Sequence record: AY587007.1
Length of the DNA: 64,000 nucleotides
Strand: one strand, 5' to 3'
DNA from: Escherichia phage T5
The position numbers were made by a program, and so were the translations under genes. Each line of letters starts with the position of its first letter. The first letter of the stretch is position 1. Below are positions 124 through 12,430 of the stretch, piece by piece. The notes beneath the pieces were generated by a model, which saw only the letters and a list, made by a program, of their open reading frames with translations, had not been told where the DNA came from and made no database searches.

Positions 124-858
124 TTACGCAACTTTTAATTTCTCAATATATTGTTGCGGGCTGCAACTATATTCTGCGCGTTCTTCTTCGGTCATACCTT
201 CCCAACATAATTGCAGGCGGTCGGCTAGGAACTGATAATCATTATCATCCTCAAGAGATTCATCAATAAAGGTTTCACCTATCAATGTCACGCCGATTGA
301 TAGAATATCATTAACGGCTTGTGCGTCCAGCGTTTTAAATCCGTATGACGCTGCCGCTGATAGCACGCCTTTATGATCATCAATCATTGTAAAATCAGCG
401 TTCGGATATAATTGTTTGAATAGCCCAAAATAGTAACTTTTATAAACTGCGTCTTTGCTGTGGTATATCTCGCTAACTTTATCAGCCTCAAAATATTTGT
501 GTAGTGTATCGCGGGAAAATACACGGATATTACTATCACCACGACCGCGCAACCCTTGTTTACGCAAATAATAATAGTCCGACTTGCTCATTAGTCGAGC
601 GGTGCAAATAATGTTTAAAGTATTTGCGTCATTCATGCACTGGCGCATATATGTAACAAGGGGCAATAGTGTATCTTGCATTATTAAATCATGTTTGCAG
701 GCTTCATTTTTATACTTATTTAAATCTAAATTGCCCTCGCTATCAAAGCAAGGCGCTACACGATGAAACGAATTAATGATAGTGCCGTCCAGATCCCAAA
801 TCATGACGCGGGAAATATGCGGGAAATTACGGGTAATATTCGTTTTAACTTGATTCAT
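124..858 (-). CDS. dmp: 5'-deoxyribonucleotidase (HAD-family phosphatase), T5 dmp-like
   Basis: 244-aa ORF with HAD motif I (WDLDGTIINS); length and position match the T5 pre-early dmp as I recall it. Confidence 0.65.
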   Translation of the reverse strand: MNQVKTNITRNFPHISRVMIWDLDGTIINSFHRVAPCFDSEGNLDLNKYKNEACKHDLIMQDTLLPLVTYMRQCMNDANTLNIICTARLMSKSDYYYLRKQGLRGRGDSNIRVFSRDTLHKYFEADKVSEIYHSKDAVYKSYYFGLFKQLYPNADFTMIDDHKGVLSAAASYGFKTLDAQAVNDILSIGVTLIGETFIDESLEDDNDYQFLADRLQLCWEGMTEEERAEYSCSPQQYIEKLKVA

Positions 859-3725: not shown

Positions 3726-4133
3726 TTATTCGCCTGCGGCTTGTTTTACTTCATCGGCAACGCCTAACAGTTGCGCCACGGCGTCCAGCGTTTCCAATTT
3801 TGCACTTTCCAGTGATGCCAGATCGTCAGCGTCTTTGATAATACCGGAATCGATGGCATGTTTTGCAATCACACGCACGTAGTGCGCTTTGCGGATAGAA
3901 CTGCCGCCGCCAACCTTGCGAGGTTTATCGCTTTTCTGATACGCTTTCGCGCTGGTCAATTTTGAGCGAACAGACACGGGAGAAGCCGCGCCAACTGCTT
4001 TTGCAATCTCTTTTAAACCGTCGCTATTTGCGAAATCTAAACCGTTTTCATTAATTAACTGCTGGTACATGGAAACAGCTTTCTGAGTGTTTTCTTCATT
4101 CCAAGCGAATTTTGCGGTTTTAGCGTTAGTCAT
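3726..4133 (-). CDS. A2-like small pre-early protein
   Basis: 135-aa ORF immediately upstream of A1 in transcription order; size fits T5 A2 (~15 kDa); identity is positional inference only. Confidence 0.4.
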   Translation of the reverse strand: MTNAKTAKFAWNEENTQKAVSMYQQLINENGLDFANSDGLKEIAKAVGAASPVSVRSKLTSAKAYQKSDKPRKVGGGSSIRKAHYVRVIAKHAIDSGIIKDADDLASLESAKLETLDAVAQLLGVADEVKQAAGE

Positions 4134-5853: not shown

Positions 5854-6042
5854 TGTTATAGTTTCCTTATGTTATTAATTTAATCTCTATTATATTATAT
5901 CAAAACCATTAGCAAACTACCTAATGAGTTTTTCAGGTTTAATTAGCAGACTCATAATCACTTTAAAATCCTATTAGCCAACTAACTATATTTTGTTATA
6001 TAATAACTGCATAAATTAGTTAGTGAGAAACACTATCATTTA

Positions 6043-6051
6043 AGTTATCCA
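6043..6051 (+). promoter_or_regulatory. DnaA-box consensus TTATCCACA
   Basis: exact 9-mer match; second exact copy at 6116-6124. Confidence 0.5.
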
Positions 6052-6115
6052 CAGCCTTATACATTTTGTAAATTAACTTGACACAATAGGAAGGCTTTAT
6101 AGCACTTTTACACAG

Positions 6116-6124
6116 ACTTATCCA
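6116..6124 (+). promoter_or_regulatory. DnaA-box consensus TTATCCACA
   Basis: exact 9-mer match. Confidence 0.5.
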
Positions 6125-6132
6125 CAGGTTAT

Positions 6133-6152
6133 TCCACTGTATAAATATACAG
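6133..6152. promoter_or_regulatory. LexA (SOS) box-like palindrome CACTGTATAAATATACAGGG
   Basis: core CTGT-N8-ACAG with AT-rich spacer; weaker flanks than the partner at 9330-9349. Confidence 0.4.
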
Positions 6153-6416
6153 GGTAAATGGAAGACATATTATAATGATGCCCAAAATAAGCGGCCTAAA
6201 ACGCTTTCTAACGAGCCAAACGCTATAGGGTAATATTAAAGTAAAGCCTCACGCGTCGCCTGGTGGCTTCGCCGTGTTTTGCTCTTTACTATACCGCTGC
6301 GCGGTTAGCATAAAACTAGGCGCTAGGCAAGGAAAATAAAAAGGTAAAATAATATTTGCCTATGCTAGAAAATTACCTTTATCATTCACTCACCGATTAA
6401 CGAGGGAGGCCAACAA

Positions 6417-7824: not shown

Positions 7825-8004
7825 ATGGTTATTTTTCGAGCTATTCTGGCAGGTATCTTGGGCGCTATTCTGACCCTTTTTGCTACCGCTTACGGTATTC
7901 AAGATTCTTATTGTGGTTTAGTAAATACTAAACCTATGGTTATTATTGGCGCGGGTATCGCTGTATTTTCTTATCTGCTGGGCTGCATGAATAAAGGAGA
8001 ATAA
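7825..8004 (+). CDS. small membrane protein (59 aa)
   Basis: ORF below the track size cut-off; RBS GGGGAG; two hydrophobic helices. Confidence 0.4.
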   Translation: MVIFRAILAGILGAILTLFATAYGIQDSYCGLVNTKPMVIIGAGIAVFSYLLGCMNKGE

Positions 8005-8006
8005 AA

Positions 8007-8219
8007 ATGATCCGCAACGTTTCTCTTGCTCGTTCAAAGGGTTTTAAGCTGGTGGATGTTAACACATTCGAGCGGGAAGATTGTAAAATCGAATATGTAG
8101 CACGTAATAAAAACGCCTTTCGTGTTACAGAAAAGAAATTTGATAAGCGCGGCAACGTGATAGCTGAAACGGTTAAACATTTTGCCACCTTTTACGCGGC
8201 TTTTCGTGGAGTGTTATAA
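8007..8219 (+). CDS. hypothetical protein
   Basis: 70-aa ORF with RBS AAGGAG. Confidence 0.45.
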   Translation: MIRNVSLARSKGFKLVDVNTFEREDCKIEYVARNKNAFRVTEKKFDKRGNVIAETVKHFATFYAAFRGVL

Positions 8220-8220
8220 A

Positions 8221-8565
8221 ATGGTAATTTATGAAGGCAATCGCTTTGTTGCTATTTGCCGACCGGGATTATTAGCAAACTACTTAAATCAGGTGTCACC
8301 TGAATATAAAGGCGTCATTAATATTTATGAGGGCAAGGCGCATTATAAGATTAATGCGGTCGTTGCCCGTGAATTAGCATTTCAATTTTTGACTTTCGCA
8401 TCTTGTGATATTCAGGTCATGGGTGAAGCGTTAATTGCAGAAAATGAAGATGATTTTATTAATATCTTCCGCAAGGTATACACCGAGCGCCTGATAATGA
8501 AAGGCGCATATATTCAGTCAACTGCGGAAAGTATTGAAACAGCTTTCAGAAAGGTGGCGCAATGA
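8221..8565 (+). CDS. hypothetical protein
   Basis: start moved to ATG at 8221 preceded by GGAG; 114 aa. Confidence 0.45.
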   Translation: MVIYEGNRFVAICRPGLLANYLNQVSPEYKGVINIYEGKAHYKINAVVARELAFQFLTFASCDIQVMGEALIAENEDDFINIFRKVYTERLIMKGAYIQSTAESIETAFRKVAQ

Positions 8566-8664
8566 AGCTATATATTTTCGTTGGTAATGTTGAGGCTGCG
8601 AATGATTCCGCTGGTGGCGATAACGTTCGCCACTATTGGCAAAAATATATTTACTAGGGTTATT

Positions 8665-8859
8665 ATGATTACACTGATTTGCGTTAAAGCCGAAGGCGAC
8701 ACGATAGCGCGAGAAGGGCAAAAATATAAAGCCCAAAAAGATCAATTACTCAAAACAATTGAGCGTTACAAAATACCCGATCTCAAGTATTCCGTAGTAG
8801 GACGCGATGGGATTCTAAGGGCGACACTTGAGAACGCTATCTTTGAGATAGTCAACTAA
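8665..8859 (+). CDS. hypothetical protein
   Basis: 64-aa ORF from internal ATG; weak RBS. Confidence 0.3.
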   Translation: MITLICVKAEGDTIAREGQKYKAQKDQLLKTIERYKIPDLKYSVVGRDGILRATLENAIFEIVN

Positions 8860-8874
8860 TAACGGGGCGTTATT

Positions 8875-9078
8875 ATGAGCAATAAAATTATTGTGACCAA
8901 AACTACCACAATGGTAGACGTTTTTTATGTGCCCGATACGCCGGAGAATCGGGGAGCGGTCGAGCGGGGCGAGTATGATAGCGTTATTTATGATGCCGAT
9001 GGTTATTATCAGCATTTGGTCGATTCCTACGGGGAAGAGGAGAAGATCACGCATCGATTACCCGAGGGGGATTTATGA
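8875..9078 (+). CDS. hypothetical protein
   Basis: 67-aa ORF. Confidence 0.3.
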   Translation: MSNKIIVTKTTTMVDVFYVPDTPENRGAVERGEYDSVIYDADGYYQHLVDSYGEEEKITHRLPEGDL

Positions 9079-9329
9079 AACGATGGTTTAATCACTGGTA
9101 TAAACGGTTTTTAGTACGGCATCGCAAGTCTAGACAGCAAGATGATTGGCGGGAAATGGCCAAGCGTAACAATTGCCCACTTCTCTGATAACCGACGGGG
9201 ATCAGCTCCCCGTTTTTCACGCCTCCAGTTAAATCCCCCTTTGTTTTAGTATCCCCATCAAAATTAAACGCGTTAGAATGCGATCTAGGACGTTTTAGGC
9301 ATATATTAGAATTATTCACTGCGTAGGAA

Positions 9330-9349
9330 TACTGTATAAATATACAGTA
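9330..9349. promoter_or_regulatory. near-consensus LexA (SOS) box TACTGTATAAATATACAGTA
   Basis: 19 of 20 positions match the E. coli consensus TACTGTATATATATACAGTA. Confidence 0.55.
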
Positions 9350-9430
9350 GGATAACCTGGGGATAAGTCTGTTGATAACGCTTCAAAATGGCTAGGATTT
9401 TGTCAAGGCGAATCGTGCTGTTGATAAGTC

Positions 9431-9439
9431 TGTGGATAA
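9431..9439 (-). promoter_or_regulatory. DnaA box (TGTGGATAA, reverse complement of TTATCCACA)
   Basis: exact 9-mer; two one-mismatch copies (TTATCAACA) nearby at about 9371 and 9421. Confidence 0.5.
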
Positions 9440-9466
9440 CTTAAATAACAGTGTTTCTCACTTCCG

Positions 9467-9620
9467 TTTTTAAATACGAATCATTATCATTCGTATTCCG
9501 CTTTTTAAATGAGAATCATTCCGCTTTTTAAATGAGAATCATTTCACTTCCTGAATAGTTCTCATTCCCTTTCTTAAATGAGAATCATTATCATTTGCAT
9601 TTCACTTTTTAAATGAGATT
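9467..9620. repeat. five tandem-ish direct repeats of TTTTTAAATGAGAATCATT (variants included)
   Basis: copies at about 9467, 9502, 9525, 9571 and 9596; interleaved with the palindromic unit GAATCATTATCATTCG. Confidence 0.65.
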
Positions 9621-9672
9621 GATTCTCATTATCATTCGCATTCAGGCGAGCAGGCAATTGCCCTGCGCTTTT

Positions 9673-10409
9673 GTGCAAATCCGACATTTGCCCCCATGGA
9701 TTACGCGTGGGCGTGTATGTGCAAATCCGACAATTTTTGGTAGTGTGCGAATCCGACCCGAAAAATTTTTATAGTGTGCAAATCCGACAATGAATTTTCC
9801 CAAAAACTCCAGCAATCACGAACTGCGTTCGAATCCTGTGGAATTAGCTAGAGTATGTGCAAATCCGACATGTGTTGAGATGTGCGAATCCGACAAGATT
9901 TTTGTGACTTCGATGGGAGGGTGTGTGATTGTATGGGTTTGAGGGGAAGATGAGAGAGCGAGAGAAATTTGGGAGGCTAGAAGGATATGGGCGCAGGATT
10001 GGTGCGGAGCACCTGATTTGCGGGGATTTTGGGGAAGAGTTGAGATAATTTGGGAAGATTTGAGATAGGTGCAGAAAAAGTAAAATTTTATTAGCTAAAG
10101 GGGGCAAAATAGCTTGACAAGTGAAAATTTCTGTGGATCTAAAAACTCAGGCAATCATGGGCCTTCGGCCCGAAATAATGCTGCTATTTTCAGGAGAGTA
10201 AGAGTTCCTAAAAACTTAGGCGTTTGTGCAAATCCGACCATAAATTTCTAGAAACACAATGTGCAAATCCGACAGTAATTTCTGGAAATGTGTTTTCAAA
10301 AAATGTCTTCTAGAAATAACCGCCCTCCCTATAACCGCCCTGTATTAAACCGCCTATTGCTGGAGTTTCTAGGAACATGAAAACTGCCCTAGAGTATGTG
10401 CAAATCCGA
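9673..10409. repeat. nine dispersed copies of the 15-mer TGTGCAAATCCGACA (variant TGTGCGAATCCGAC)
   Basis: copies start at 9673, 9718, 9744, 9775, 9856, 9881, 10225, 10260 and 10397, all same orientation with irregular spacing; tenth copy inside a CDS at 12073. Confidence 0.7.
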
Positions 10410-10855
10410 TGAATATTTTTGTGTGATCCCTAGAATTTATACTTATCAATTTCCTAGAAACTCAGGAGTCTAGAAGAAAGTGTTGTGCCATCCTAGCAGA
10501 TGAGCGGCAACAGGTGTATCATCTTGAATGTAAATTATATGGTCAAAAGTTTTACTTTTATTTTAAATATAAGATCCCCCAGGGTTCTCATATAGAGCTT
10601 TGCCCCCGCCAGAAGGTCTCGTGATGTTTCTAGTAATTTATATTAAATTACTTATTAACTTGTCCTATCGCTCCGTATCCTCCGCTACAAGTTAGTAATT
10701 TTAAATTACTGAACCACCACACCTTCTGTGTGGCAACTCTAAATGGTTAATTCTATTAACTCATAGAGTTATGATAACATACATTTAGCTATCTGTCAAC
10801 GAAAGTTTGTATTTGAGTCTCGGTACAGGTATTGTGCACCGAGATATGCAGAGTA

Positions 10856-11740
10856 TTATAATAATTCTTGGTATGCTTTTTGATACGCCTCAGTATCTGT
10901 AGGTGTATCTTTTGCTAACGCAATTAGTTCATCTGTTATCTGAACATTCGTACTATAACGTTGGTGGAACTCTTCTGGGATTTCTAGGTATCTATTTATG
11001 AACGCTGCAGCAAGCGGTGTAACTAACCCAATTTCTAGGGATAACTTAACTTGTTTCTCATAAATTAAATACTGAGAATCAGATGGGATTGGTGGGGTTA
11101 CATCAACTTTTTCTGGTTCTTTTTCTGGAAGCAATGGATTGTTATACAATGCTTCATCTGGAAGCACAGATTTACGCTCTTTAAATATATAAGTTTCTAG
11201 ATCCGATGCTTTAGATCCTGAGTAAACAGCGAAGATGCTAGCTTTACCTTGTGATGCCCTAACTGGTAAATAGTTAGTTGGGTAACTCCTTAATGCATCA
11301 TGGAATGGACTTCCTGAGTATTTGTATGTATCCCCATAGAGATCATCAATATTCATTCGTTCATCTTCAAAGATATGGAAAGAGCTAAATGATGGGATGG
11401 TGAAGTATTCCATCTGTAACCCATAAACTAAGAAACGATGTGCATATGCGCTAATCTTTAAGACTGTGAATGCTTTCTCACCTTCTTTATAAGAATTGCC
11501 CTTTGAAGTAACTTGATAACGCTTACAAAACATCTCTACTAAACGTTTCTCATTAATATTGAGTGAGGAATATAAACGTCCATTTAGCCCTAGAAGGGCA
11601 TCAAACATAAATGCTAACTTATCTTTTTCTTCTTGAGACAGTTCTGGAAATGGTAATACTTTGGCATTAGGAACATTATTGTTCTCTTTAGGTTTTGTTT
11701 TACCAGCATTTTGTCTTAGTTTATCTTTAAAGTTATACAT
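10856..11740 (-). CDS. hypothetical early protein
   Basis: 294-aa ORF. Confidence 0.5.
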   Translation of the reverse strand: MYNFKDKLRQNAGKTKPKENNNVPNAKVLPFPELSQEEKDKLAFMFDALLGLNGRLYSSLNINEKRLVEMFCKRYQVTSKGNSYKEGEKAFTVLKISAYAHRFLVYGLQMEYFTIPSFSSFHIFEDERMNIDDLYGDTYKYSGSPFHDALRSYPTNYLPVRASQGKASIFAVYSGSKASDLETYIFKERKSVLPDEALYNNPLLPEKEPEKVDVTPPIPSDSQYLIYEKQVKLSLEIGLVTPLAAAFINRYLEIPEEFHQRYSTNVQITDELIALAKDTPTDTEAYQKAYQELL

Positions 11741-11821
11741 TATTTATCTCTCATTTTTTAAGGTCTGGATGACCTTCTTTTTATTTTAGAGCCTCCGTAG
11801 AGGCTCATGTATTAGGAATTA

Positions 11822-12430
11822 TTAATCCTTTTTATTCTCATTAATAACAGCTCCTAGTGCTTCAAGGATAGTATCATTTATACTCCCAGGCCTAAGATTA
11901 TTAAAGTGAGTAACATAGATGGGACTTTTAAAACCTTCAGTATCCACAGGTGCTACGCTTTTCATGTCAGATTCAAAAGCTTCTTGAGTATGTTTCAATT
12001 GTGCAGAAGGTCCATAATCTTCACCAACTCGATATGAGGAATTATTTTCTATAACGCCACCGCATGGAACATTGTGCAAATCCGACGTTATTTTAGGACT
12101 GTTCCACATTGTAATTGGCCCCGATTGCCACGGATCTCGAATAGTCACAGGAGTACTAGGACGGTTAACCTCAGTCTTCACAAGCTTATAACCAGCATCG
12201 ATTAGTGTATTAATTAGATTATCAGCGGGAATACGAGCCTTGCCAAAAATCTTACGAGCGTTGTTGAGCCTACCTTCAAAATCTTTACATGCTTTAATAT
12301 TAGTGTGTGCAAAGGTTAGCTTCATAGATTTGAACTGTACGGTAGCAGTTAAATCTTTAAAAGCATAATCCCACGTATTCAGTTCATGATCTGGTACTAC
12401 TTGAATAGATTGCTGTGCATATAAAGTCAT
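11822..12430 (-). CDS. hypothetical early protein
   Basis: 202-aa ORF; contains one copy of TGTGCAAATCCGAC at 12073-12086. Confidence 0.5.
   Translation of the reverse strand: MTLYAQQSIQVVPDHELNTWDYAFKDLTATVQFKSMKLTFAHTNIKACKDFEGRLNNARKIFGKARIPADNLINTLIDAGYKLVKTEVNRPSTPVTIRDPWQSGPITMWNSPKITSDLHNVPCGGVIENNSSYRVGEDYGPSAQLKHTQEAFESDMKSVAPVDTEGFKSPIYVTHFNNLRPGSINDTILEALGAVINENKKD

Follow-up and report, generated by a model that had tools for sequence, protein, structure and literature searches.

A conserved repeat array in the injection stop signal of bacteriophage T5 resembles a cluster of Fur operators and is a candidate binding region for the host Fur repressor

Results

We found that the tandem repeat array at positions 9467 to 9620 of a 64,000-nt stretch of the Escherichia phage T5 genome (AY587007.1; hereafter, the window) bears a strong resemblance to a cluster of operators of the host repressor Fur. 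The array is almost certainly the known set of DRC/DRE repeats, with palE and the later palindromes of Repeat Region 3, that forms the core of the annotated injection stop signal (iss). The sequence feature itself is therefore already known and annotated and is not novel. What is new, and unreported as far as we checked, is the strong and conserved resemblance of its sequence to a Fur operator array beside a LexA box. The reading that we prefer is that this known iss module binds protein and that its ligand would be the iron-loaded Fur repressor of the host; we give this statement as a whole a probability of roughly 0.55. Its parts differ in strength. Judged from the sequence, the array is very likely a protein-binding module, and Fur is its probable ligand; that Fur binding is a selected function that contributes to the pause in DNA entry is a tentative proposal, with the odds against it.

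Position of the array in the injection stop signal

Positions 8000 to 12000 of the window are 99.9% identical to Escherichia phage T5 over their full length (megablast against the phage collection). The numbering is that of AY587007, and the published 131-bp inverted repeat (6022-6152/9332-9462) falls at exactly these positions; relative to AY543070, the offset at the array is 79, so that window position 9467 corresponds to 9546. The array lies inside the annotated iss, in a left terminal repeat that ends at ~ 10140 and that is, according to the GenBank record, the first-step-transfer DNA, the first to enter the host cell. The right terminal repeat carries the element as well, ~ 500-700 bp from its right end. 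The coordinates of all features are presented in Table 1.

Table 1 Features of the T5 injection stop signal in window coordinates
Feature	Position	Strand	Basis and remarks
Injection stop signal (iss), non-coding, left terminal repeat	9061..10070	.	misc_feature, AY543070 9140-10149; also AY692264
palD, TACTGTATAAATATACAGTA, LexA (SOS) box-like (predicted)	9330..9349	.	19/20 consensus matches
131-bp inverted repeat, right copy (IRD'-spacer-IRC')	9332..9462	.	Partner 6022-6152; arms 88-92% complementary; in Davison 2020
DnaA/DnaA-like boxes within the right arm	TGGGGATAA 9358; TGTTGATAA 9370 and 9419; TGTGGATAA 9431	.	Sequence positions; Davison 2020
DRE1, first copy of the 67-nt direct repeat	9455..9521	+	Repeat finding; name from Davison 2020
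DRC repeats, five copies of TTTTTAAATGAGAATCATT	9467..9624	+	Pattern search and repeat finding
Fur-box-like cluster 1 (palE), predicted	9473..9497	.	19-mers at 9473 (19.1 bits) and 9479 (12.8 bits), 6-bp offset
Two weaker Fur-like sites, mainly one half-site and centre, predicted	9508..9549	.	9508 (13.1 bits), 9531 (10.2 bits)
DRE2, second copy of the 67-nt direct repeat	9559..9625	+	Repeat finding; 82% identical; contains the shear-point estimate ~ 9618 (Davison 2020)
Fur-box-like cluster 2, predicted	9577..9601	.	AATGAGAATCATTATCATT at 9577 (23.7 bits, best in the whole T5 genome), 9583 (14.1 bits), 6-bp offset
Fur-box-like cluster 3, predicted	9612..9642	.	9612 (19.5 bits), 9618 (16.7 bits), 9624 (8.7 bits), 6-bp offsets
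Major single-strand interruption (7.9% nick)	9669..9670	-	GenBank AY543070 9748/9749; sequence verified
DRD repeats, TGTGCAAATCCGACA-like units	9669..10418	+	Repeat finding, core pattern; Davison 2020

This region was named Repeat Region 3 in a preprint comparing 25 T5-like phages (Davison 2020), in which it comprises, from left to right, palD, IRD'-spacer-IRC' with paired DnaA boxes, the DREs and nine DRD repeats. Two 66-bp DRE repeats are described there as holding four DRC copies and the palindromes palE, H, G, I and J, and the IR-DRE cluster is considered the likely iss. The shear point of first-step DNA was estimated, in the same coordinates, at a position inside DRE2 (Davison 2020), and the array is thus located where first-step transfer DNA is estimated to give way to second-step transfer DNA. 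T5 entry pauses at 7.9% of the genome, and its resumption needs A1 and A2. The element in the window is the same one, with identical coordinates and no sequence difference: it is positioned at ~ 7.9% of the genome, with IRD'-spacer-IRC' and DnaA boxes to its left and DRD repeats to its right. Elements of the region are also said to have been described by Heusterspreute and coworkers in 1987, by Wang and coworkers in 2005 and by Davison in 2015.

The ~ 300 bp that precede the estimated shear point contain, in order, the LexA box, a first pair of DnaA boxes, a 52-bp spacer, a second pair of DnaA boxes and the Fur-like array. The array is followed by the major nick at 9669/9670, which lies ~ 27 bp to its right and adjoins the GCGC at 9665-9668, and then by the DRD repeats. 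The LexA-like sequence palD has the form CTGT-N8-ACAG with an A+T-rich centre, close to TACTGTATATATATACAGTA, and is thus a predicted LexA site; it is the only such match in 64 kb (none in shuffles), and it is kept at 19/20 in 12 of 14 T5-like phages. The array itself sits between two convergent transcription units. A scan of 9000-10700 against Rfam recognised no known RNA element and returned only two sub-threshold chance matches, to a miRNA and a CRISPR repeat family (E 0.35-0.64), and a promoter and terminator scan over the array found nothing above chance, the 9-of-12 promoter-like matches being no commoner than in shuffles. The DRD repeats (eight copies in one repeat family, nine in 9669-10418 with the core pattern) start at the nick and extend across the right end of the terminal repeat; they are neighbouring context and lie outside the array finding.

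This setting raises the question of whether the array could instead serve concatemer processing or packaging at the terminal-repeat boundary, through terminase recognition assisted by a host factor in the way that IHF assists at lambda cos. Such a role would suit the copy in the right terminal repeat, the Fur-like sites that Vibrio phage VF16 carries 18-83 bp from its left terminus, and the adjacent DRD repeats with their span across the boundary. However, the array lies ~ 500 bp from the boundary and the DRD repeats are better candidates, and we regard a packaging role as very improbable.

Another question concerns replication. The initial annotation had compared the repeats to iterons and proposed that, together with the DnaA boxes, they could mark a replication- or transfer-related cis element. 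As in oriC and iteron-type origins, direct repeats are found here beside paired DnaA boxes (four DnaA or DnaA-like boxes in total) in A+T-rich non-coding DNA, within a stretch of ~ 33% G+C, and one could imagine an initiator bound to the repeats of an origin or of a plasmid-like replication element. Unlike the array, however, those origins have an adjacent initiator gene and a regular spacing of ~ 22 bp. The ORFs that flank the array are small hypothetical pre-early and early genes, none of them for an initiator, in convergent units on either side, and the repeats are irregularly spaced, by 23-46 bp in T5 and by 17-58 bp in its relatives. A search of the plasmid collection with the 4-kb region gave no match, which counts against a plasmid origin. 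To our knowledge, the repeat motif matches a repressor operator and no iteron family. In addition, the T5 origins lie elsewhere, near the centre of the genome, and the replication genes are absent from first-step DNA and unexpressed while only that DNA is intracellular (Davison 2020). We therefore abandoned the iteron or origin interpretation, which is extremely improbable. The remainder of the original proposal fared better: the predicted protein sites and the conserved non-coding iss with its DnaA boxes agree with a protein-bound cis element in transfer, provided that transfer means injection of the phage genome and not conjugation.

Structure of the array

The unit TTTTTAAATGAGAATCATT occurs at 9467, 9502, 9525, 9571 and 9606, with 0-2 mismatches in each copy. 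In a search allowing at most 3 mismatches, no sixth match was found in the 64-kb window, and dinucleotide shuffles gave an expectation of 0.06 matches, which confirms the five copies reported initially. As also reported, the array directly follows the right arm of the inverted repeat: the arm ends at 9462 and the array begins 5 bp further on. Tandem Repeats Finder gave a period of 23 nt, and a repeat-family search a 23-nt unit in 5 copies at 9460-9621; nevertheless, the start-to-start spacings of the units are an irregular 35, 23, 46 and 35. At a higher level of organization, the array is built from the two 67-nt direct repeats DRE1 and DRE2 (Table 1), and the repeated region runs to ~ 9642, slightly past the end initially assigned to it. 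Interleaved with the TTTTTAAATGAGAATCATT copies is GAATCATTATCATTCG, at 9478 and 9582, with a variant, TCTCATTATCATTCG, at 9623-9638. The interleaving had thus been described correctly, but the palindromy ascribed to this unit is imperfect; the true palindrome is the 25-nt AATACGAATCAT-T-ATCATTCGTATT at 9473-9497.

Such an arrangement could also act through DNA structure, with hairpins or cruciforms of the nested palindromes, or T-tract bends, jamming or slowing the passage of the genome through the tail tube and the membrane channel. Single-stranded folding of 9455-9650 yields -29 kcal/mol compared with -12 +/- 2.5 kcal/mol for shuffles (z = -6.9), several palindromes and inverted repeats occur within the array, every unit contains a TTTTTAAA tract, and the strand nick lies only 27 bp to the right. 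However, palindromy follows automatically from a palindromic protein site present in both orientations, and unit spacings of 17-58 bp are out of helical phase. The relatives keep the 19-mers described below but not their order, spacing or pairing partners, and no particular hairpin is therefore conserved. Linear DNA leaving the capsid has no supercoiling to drive cruciform extrusion. Complete ejection in vitro through purified FhuA, reported in earlier work that is cited in the T5 literature, also counts against this explanation. A purely structural role is thus possible but is not favoured, and we consider it improbable. Helical phasing of the T-tracts, visible in T5 as multiples of ~ 11.6 bp, was discarded as a candidate feature, as it fails in the relatives (spacings of 29 and 41 bp).

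Similarity to Fur operators

To describe Fur sites, a matrix was built by palindromic expectation-maximisation from eight promoter regions of E. coli K-12 MG1655 (fepA-fes, fepD-entS, fepB-entC, fhuA, fecA, fecI, cirA and ryhB); the search was seeded from these promoter sequences alone and was given no consensus. The learned consensus, AATGATAATnATTATCATT, is the accepted 7-1-7 Fur motif. Under leave-one-out scoring, the real E. coli sites reached 13.6-20.4 bits, with the exception of fecA (2.2 bits), and in ~ 39 kb of E. coli control DNA matches of at least 14 bits were confined to the Fur-regulated promoter regions of the training set.

Applied to the 64-kb window, this matrix places seven of its eight best matches in the array, at 9577, 9612, 9473, 9618, 9583, 9508 and 9479 (12.8-23.7 bits; Table 1); the other one, fifth in rank, is at 231 (16.4 bits), and the ninth-best score in the window falls to 11.8 bits. 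All T5 matches of at least 12 bits therefore lie in the terminal repeat, seven of the eight inside 170 bp of array, and the remaining unique region of T5 contains no match above 11.0 bits. In 100 dinucleotide shuffles of the window, the best match averaged 13.4 bits and the overall maximum was 18.1. When the matrix columns were permuted so that the palindrome was preserved, 1 of 5000 permutations reached 23.7 bits in the array and none of the 5000 gave seven sites of at least 12 bits; the Fur match is therefore not an effect of composition. The density of weaker matches is likewise high, with eleven sites of at least 5 bits in 186 bp of array compared with 1.8 per kb across the window. The site at 231-249 was not used as independent support, since it lies inside the dmp coding sequence and is probably incidental.

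The same likeness can be seen in the repeat unit itself. It includes AATGAGAATCATT, which differs at one position from the core of the classical Fur box GATAATGATAATCATTATC; the long units extend as ...ATTATCATT, and within each of them a 19-bp element, AATGAnAATCATTnTCATT, conforms to the Fur 7-1-7 box. Allowing at most 1 mismatch, the 13-nt classical core AATGATAATCATT is found 6 times in the window (0.30 expected), and 5 of these 6 occurrences are in the array. This similarity to Fur boxes had been missed in the initial annotation.

Compared with the E. coli Fur operator clusters of ryhB, fhuA, fecI and fepB-entC, the 19-mers of the array score as high or higher, and the predicted sites are thus at the level of known operators. 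Half-sites such as ATTCTCATT are common to the T5 array, ryhB and fhuA, and GAGAAT is common to the array and fecI. Fur clusters are known to contain overlapping sites offset by 6 (or 3) bp, at which the dimers occupy different faces of the helix (Chen et al. 2007). The 6-bp offset recurs in T5 at 9473/9479, 9577/9583 and 9612/9618/9624, and an extended hexamer register is present in both the operator clusters and the array. We infer that Fur probably binds the array, because the array scores exceed those of ryhB and fecI and because Fur is abundant.

Some properties set the array apart from usual Fur operators. It belongs to a virulent phage, and its length and its number of strong sites (3-8 in ~ 170-400 bp across the phages studied) are unusual. 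It also lies off any promoter: no credible sigma-70 promoter overlaps or adjoins it, and it separates convergent operons. This speaks against the Fur reading in its simplest form, and the array is thus not a classical Fur operator. We also considered, and dropped, a Fur-regulated promoter or small RNA at the array, the promoter and terminator scan being at chance level. Among other regulators, the consensus sequences of IHF, ArgR, PurR, CytR, Zur and Lrp were compared by eye with the conserved 19-mer, and none of them fits.

Conservation of the array among T5-like phages

Is the Fur-like pattern a peculiarity of T5, or is it kept in related genomes? A 451-bp query from the region matches 541 phage records, as expected for an iss repeat region, which T5-like phages keep even when neighbouring genes differ. 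From the enterobacterial relatives, 13 phages were compared, namely four Tequintavirus, four Epseptimavirus (one of them a Yersinia phage), Eos, two Klebsiella phages, Erwinia phage KEY and Pectobacterium phage DU_PP_V. In all 13, the interval from the DnaA-box repeat to the DRD repeats contains 3-8 sites that score 17-24 bits. The initial annotation had named absence or scrambling of the repeats in close relatives as the outcome that would speak against it, and the motif is instead kept in every enterobacterial T5-like phage of the sample. What the relatives keep is the 19-mers, while site number, spacing (17-58 bp) and linker sequences vary. The information content is 1.29 bits per position within the 19-mer and 0.50 in the flanks, a difference that is partly circular because the sites were selected with the matrix. 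In taxonomic terms, the Klebsiella relatives belong to Sugarlandvirus, and DU_PP_V to a different subfamily.

To avoid this circularity, a motif was also derived solely from the phage arrays; its consensus is the hexamer-periodic AATCATTCTCATTCTCATT. Comparison of this motif with the E. coli Fur matrix gave r = 0.80 (19 columns) and r = 0.90 (13 columns), whereas none of 2000 column-permuted matrices exceeded 0.735. The phage sites depart from the Fur optimum in one systematic respect, in that they favour GAGAAT and GCGAAT hexamers over GATAAT.

Farther from T5 the picture changes. In Vibrio phage VF16, whose A1 is ~ 31% identical, the LexA-like box, the DnaA boxes and DRD-like repeats are all retained, but the position of the array is taken by unrelated repeats that are not Fur-like; the terminal repeat of VF16 has Fur-like sites at other places, namely 6656 (21.1 bits) and close to the left genome end. 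A further copy of the LexA-like box in VF16 matches at 18/20. A Proteus phage has three ~ 52-nt repeats, each of which retains only a TGATAAT half-site. These distant relatives weaken the generality of the Fur reading.

A phage protein as the possible ligand

The main and serious rival to Fur is a phage protein. Under this alternative, which we consider unlikely though more credible than the other alternatives to Fur, the array consists of sites for a pre-early protein, most likely an A2 dimer with or without A1, which would recognise the pause site and restart second-step transfer; the likeness to Fur boxes would then be a coincidence, or mimicry that lets A2 compete with Fur. A2 is a DNA-binding dimer, essential for second-step transfer, and a palindromic 19-mer would suit it. 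Where the iss architecture is present, A2 is conserved as well (66% identity in the Klebsiella phages and ~ 41% in the Vibrio and Proteus phages), and it is in just the Vibrio and Proteus phages that the array departs from the Fur pattern, as co-evolution with a diverging phage protein predicts. The Proteus half-sites fit such a protein at least as well as they fit Fur. The loss of the Fur-like pattern in VF16, where the LexA, DnaA and DRD elements are kept, counts against Fur, and the preference for GAGAAT and GCGAAT over GATAAT both counts against Fur and supports A2.

On the other side, the match to a matrix trained only on E. coli promoters is highly specific and better than those of real Fur sites, and Fur binding would therefore be expected whatever the role of A2. 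The neighbouring sites are boxes for host proteins (LexA and DnaA). Moreover, the pause precedes the synthesis of any phage protein, and a phage protein therefore cannot be the stop factor itself. The sequence of A2 gave no match in Pfam or PDB, and PHROGs labels it only as a DNA binding protein. Its single-sequence AlphaFold model is all-helical, at medium confidence (pLDDT 75.7, pTM 0.40), and a Foldseek search with this model returned nothing better than E = 0.45, only insignificant HTH-like matches. The predicted structure suggests that A2 is not Fur-like.

Discussion

If Fur is indeed the ligand, the array suggests how the first-step DNA might be organized at the pause. At sites 6 bp apart, two Fur dimers could sit on opposite faces of the helix, and Fur could polymerise further along the linkers, through which a degenerate ATTCnC hexamer register runs on. 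On emerging into the cell, the last ~ 300 bp of first-step DNA would then be coated by abundant host DNA-binding proteins, at the array as well as at the LexA box (9330-9349) and the four DnaA boxes (9358-9439). The resulting nucleoprotein complex might hold or mark the pause; A1 and A2, once synthesised, would release it, perhaps by displacing the host proteins. That Fur, LexA and DnaA coat the last-entering DNA and that their complex holds or times the pause until A1/A2 act is speculative, and we think it rather unlikely. The fuller version, in which the iss is a landing pad for LexA, DnaA and Fur in a row, with polymerised Fur on the DRC/DRE repeats helping to hold or time the pause until A1/A2 clear it, is if anything more doubtful.

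Several considerations oppose a central role of Fur in the pause. It is not obvious how a protein on DNA that has already entered could halt the DNA that follows. When iron is limiting, the T5 receptor FhuA reaches its highest abundance and holo-Fur its lowest activity, and fur mutants are commonly used for plating T5; an essential role of Fur is therefore unlikely.

The stop of T5 entry at 7.9% is a question that dates from the work of Lanni in the 1960s. In the model of Davison (2020), membrane-bound DnaA catches the DNA through the DnaA boxes alone, and the DRC/DRE repeats are given no role; the Fur-array and LexA (palD) readings name further specific host proteins and make this old question directly testable. 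Neither Fur nor LexA is mentioned in that preprint, and our literature search, with the T5 papers of 1987, 2005 and 2015 outside its scope, found no paper tying T5-like phages to Fur or LexA boxes. The reverse-genetics tools for T5 that were reported in 2026 make the array accessible to mutation. T5-like phages use iron- and vitamin-uptake receptors for entry, and, if the Fur reading is true, their genome entry would be sensitive to the iron state of the host and possibly to its SOS state. If it is wrong, the present finding amounts to a correct re-observation of a documented and annotated feature of a classic phage.

A programmed pause that exposes only early genes is shared with phage T7. 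There, entry halts after ~ 850 bp and resumes by RNA polymerase transcription. The two systems differ in that resumption in T7 is enzyme-driven, with no comparable repeat array at the stop, whereas T5 requires A1/A2 and has a conserved cis element.

LexA-like palindrome beside the array

A scan for the LexA/SOS box returned a single match in 64 kb, the palindrome palD, versus none in shuffled sequences. The palindrome is retained at 19/20 in 12 of the 14 T5-like phages, and a palD-like LexA box is present at 18/20 in Vibrio phage VF16; the Davison preprint makes no mention of LexA. In Proteus phage M4H10_20, a LexA-like box (TACTGTATATAATTACAGGG) scoring 15/20 lies beside the array of ~52-nt repeats, and so do two DnaA boxes. 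This phage thus retains the general arrangement seen in T5 but has a different repeat unit. The characteristics of these and the other elements are presented in the table.

Coordinates of the elements (window, T5 AY587007.1; L-numbers, fetched regions of T5-like relatives, where L022 is Vibrio phage VF16 and L023 is Proteus phage M4H10_20)
Element	Position	Characteristics
palD, TACTGTATAAATATACAGTA	window 9330-9349	19/20 vs LexA/SOS box consensus
Weaker second palD copy, left inverted-repeat arm	window 6135-6154	16/20 vs LexA consensus
Repeats of ~52 nt (three), ...GCAAGTGATTATCATTACTCTAGCTGAATGCGTCTAATTCGCG...	L023 2740-2900	replace T5-type array
DRD repeats, TGTGCAAATCCGACA	window 9669-10418	8 copies by repeat search, 9 by core pattern
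DRD-related repeated unit, GGTGCAAATCCGAT	L022:7105-7612	same place in Vibrio phage
Strongly purine-skewed, G-rich stretch, e.g. GGGAGGGTGTGTGATTGTATGGGTTTGAGGGGAAGATGAGAGAGCGAGAGAAATTTGGGAGG	window 9900-10099	GC skew +0.70
Fur-like site, ACTGATAATCATTATCATC	window 231-249	16.4 bits on Fur matrix
Extra Fur-like site of relatives	L003:567-585, L004:567, L006:567, L007:354, L008:355, L010:489, L011:401, L022:6656	Fur matrix
Three Fur-like sites, VF16	L022 18-83	18.2, 14.3, 13.3 bits
Protein A2	window 3726-4133	minus strand

DRD repeats and the end of the terminal repeat

To the right of the array, the DRD repeats begin precisely where the major 7.9% nick is located, with GCGC at 9665-9668, and extend across the terminal repeat's right-hand end, which lies near 10140. 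The G-rich stretch lies between two DRD groups, just inside that end. As to what might bind the DRD repeats, a terminase, a nickase or a tail protein can be named as guesses.

Fur-like sites outside the array

The Fur-like site near the left end of T5 includes a perfect 7-1-7 motif, TGATAATcATTATCA, and may be incidental because it is enclosed by dmp, a minus-strand coding sequence at AY543070 124-858. One additional strong Fur-like site (~17-23 bits; for example, AATGAGAATCATTCTCATT) was observed in most of the relatives. It is located a few tens of bp past the last rightward pre-early ORF and 360-660 bp upstream of the array, and its flanks are recognisably alike, even in VF16; this site is absent from the corresponding place in T5. 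The left genome terminus of VF16 lies within 83 bp of all three of its terminal Fur-like sites, which are outside dmp, and the Fur matrix scan detected no counterpart of them at the T5 left end. These VF16 sites are on the DNA that enters the cell first.

Protein A2 and record numbering

Protein A2 has no sequence relative in Pfam or PDB. A single-sequence AlphaFold model (pLDDT 75.7) displays two helical halves, and its only structural matches, to three-helix HTH, homeodomain or Myb-like domains, are weak and non-significant.

Window coordinates correspond to AY543070 coordinates minus 1 at A2 but minus 79 in the injection stop signal (iss) region; thus, the window lacks ~78 bp found in AY543070 and AY692264. 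The difference was placed at window ~5600 relative to AY543070, and the ~78 bp missing from the window matches the 75 bp by which the AY587007 record is reported to differ.
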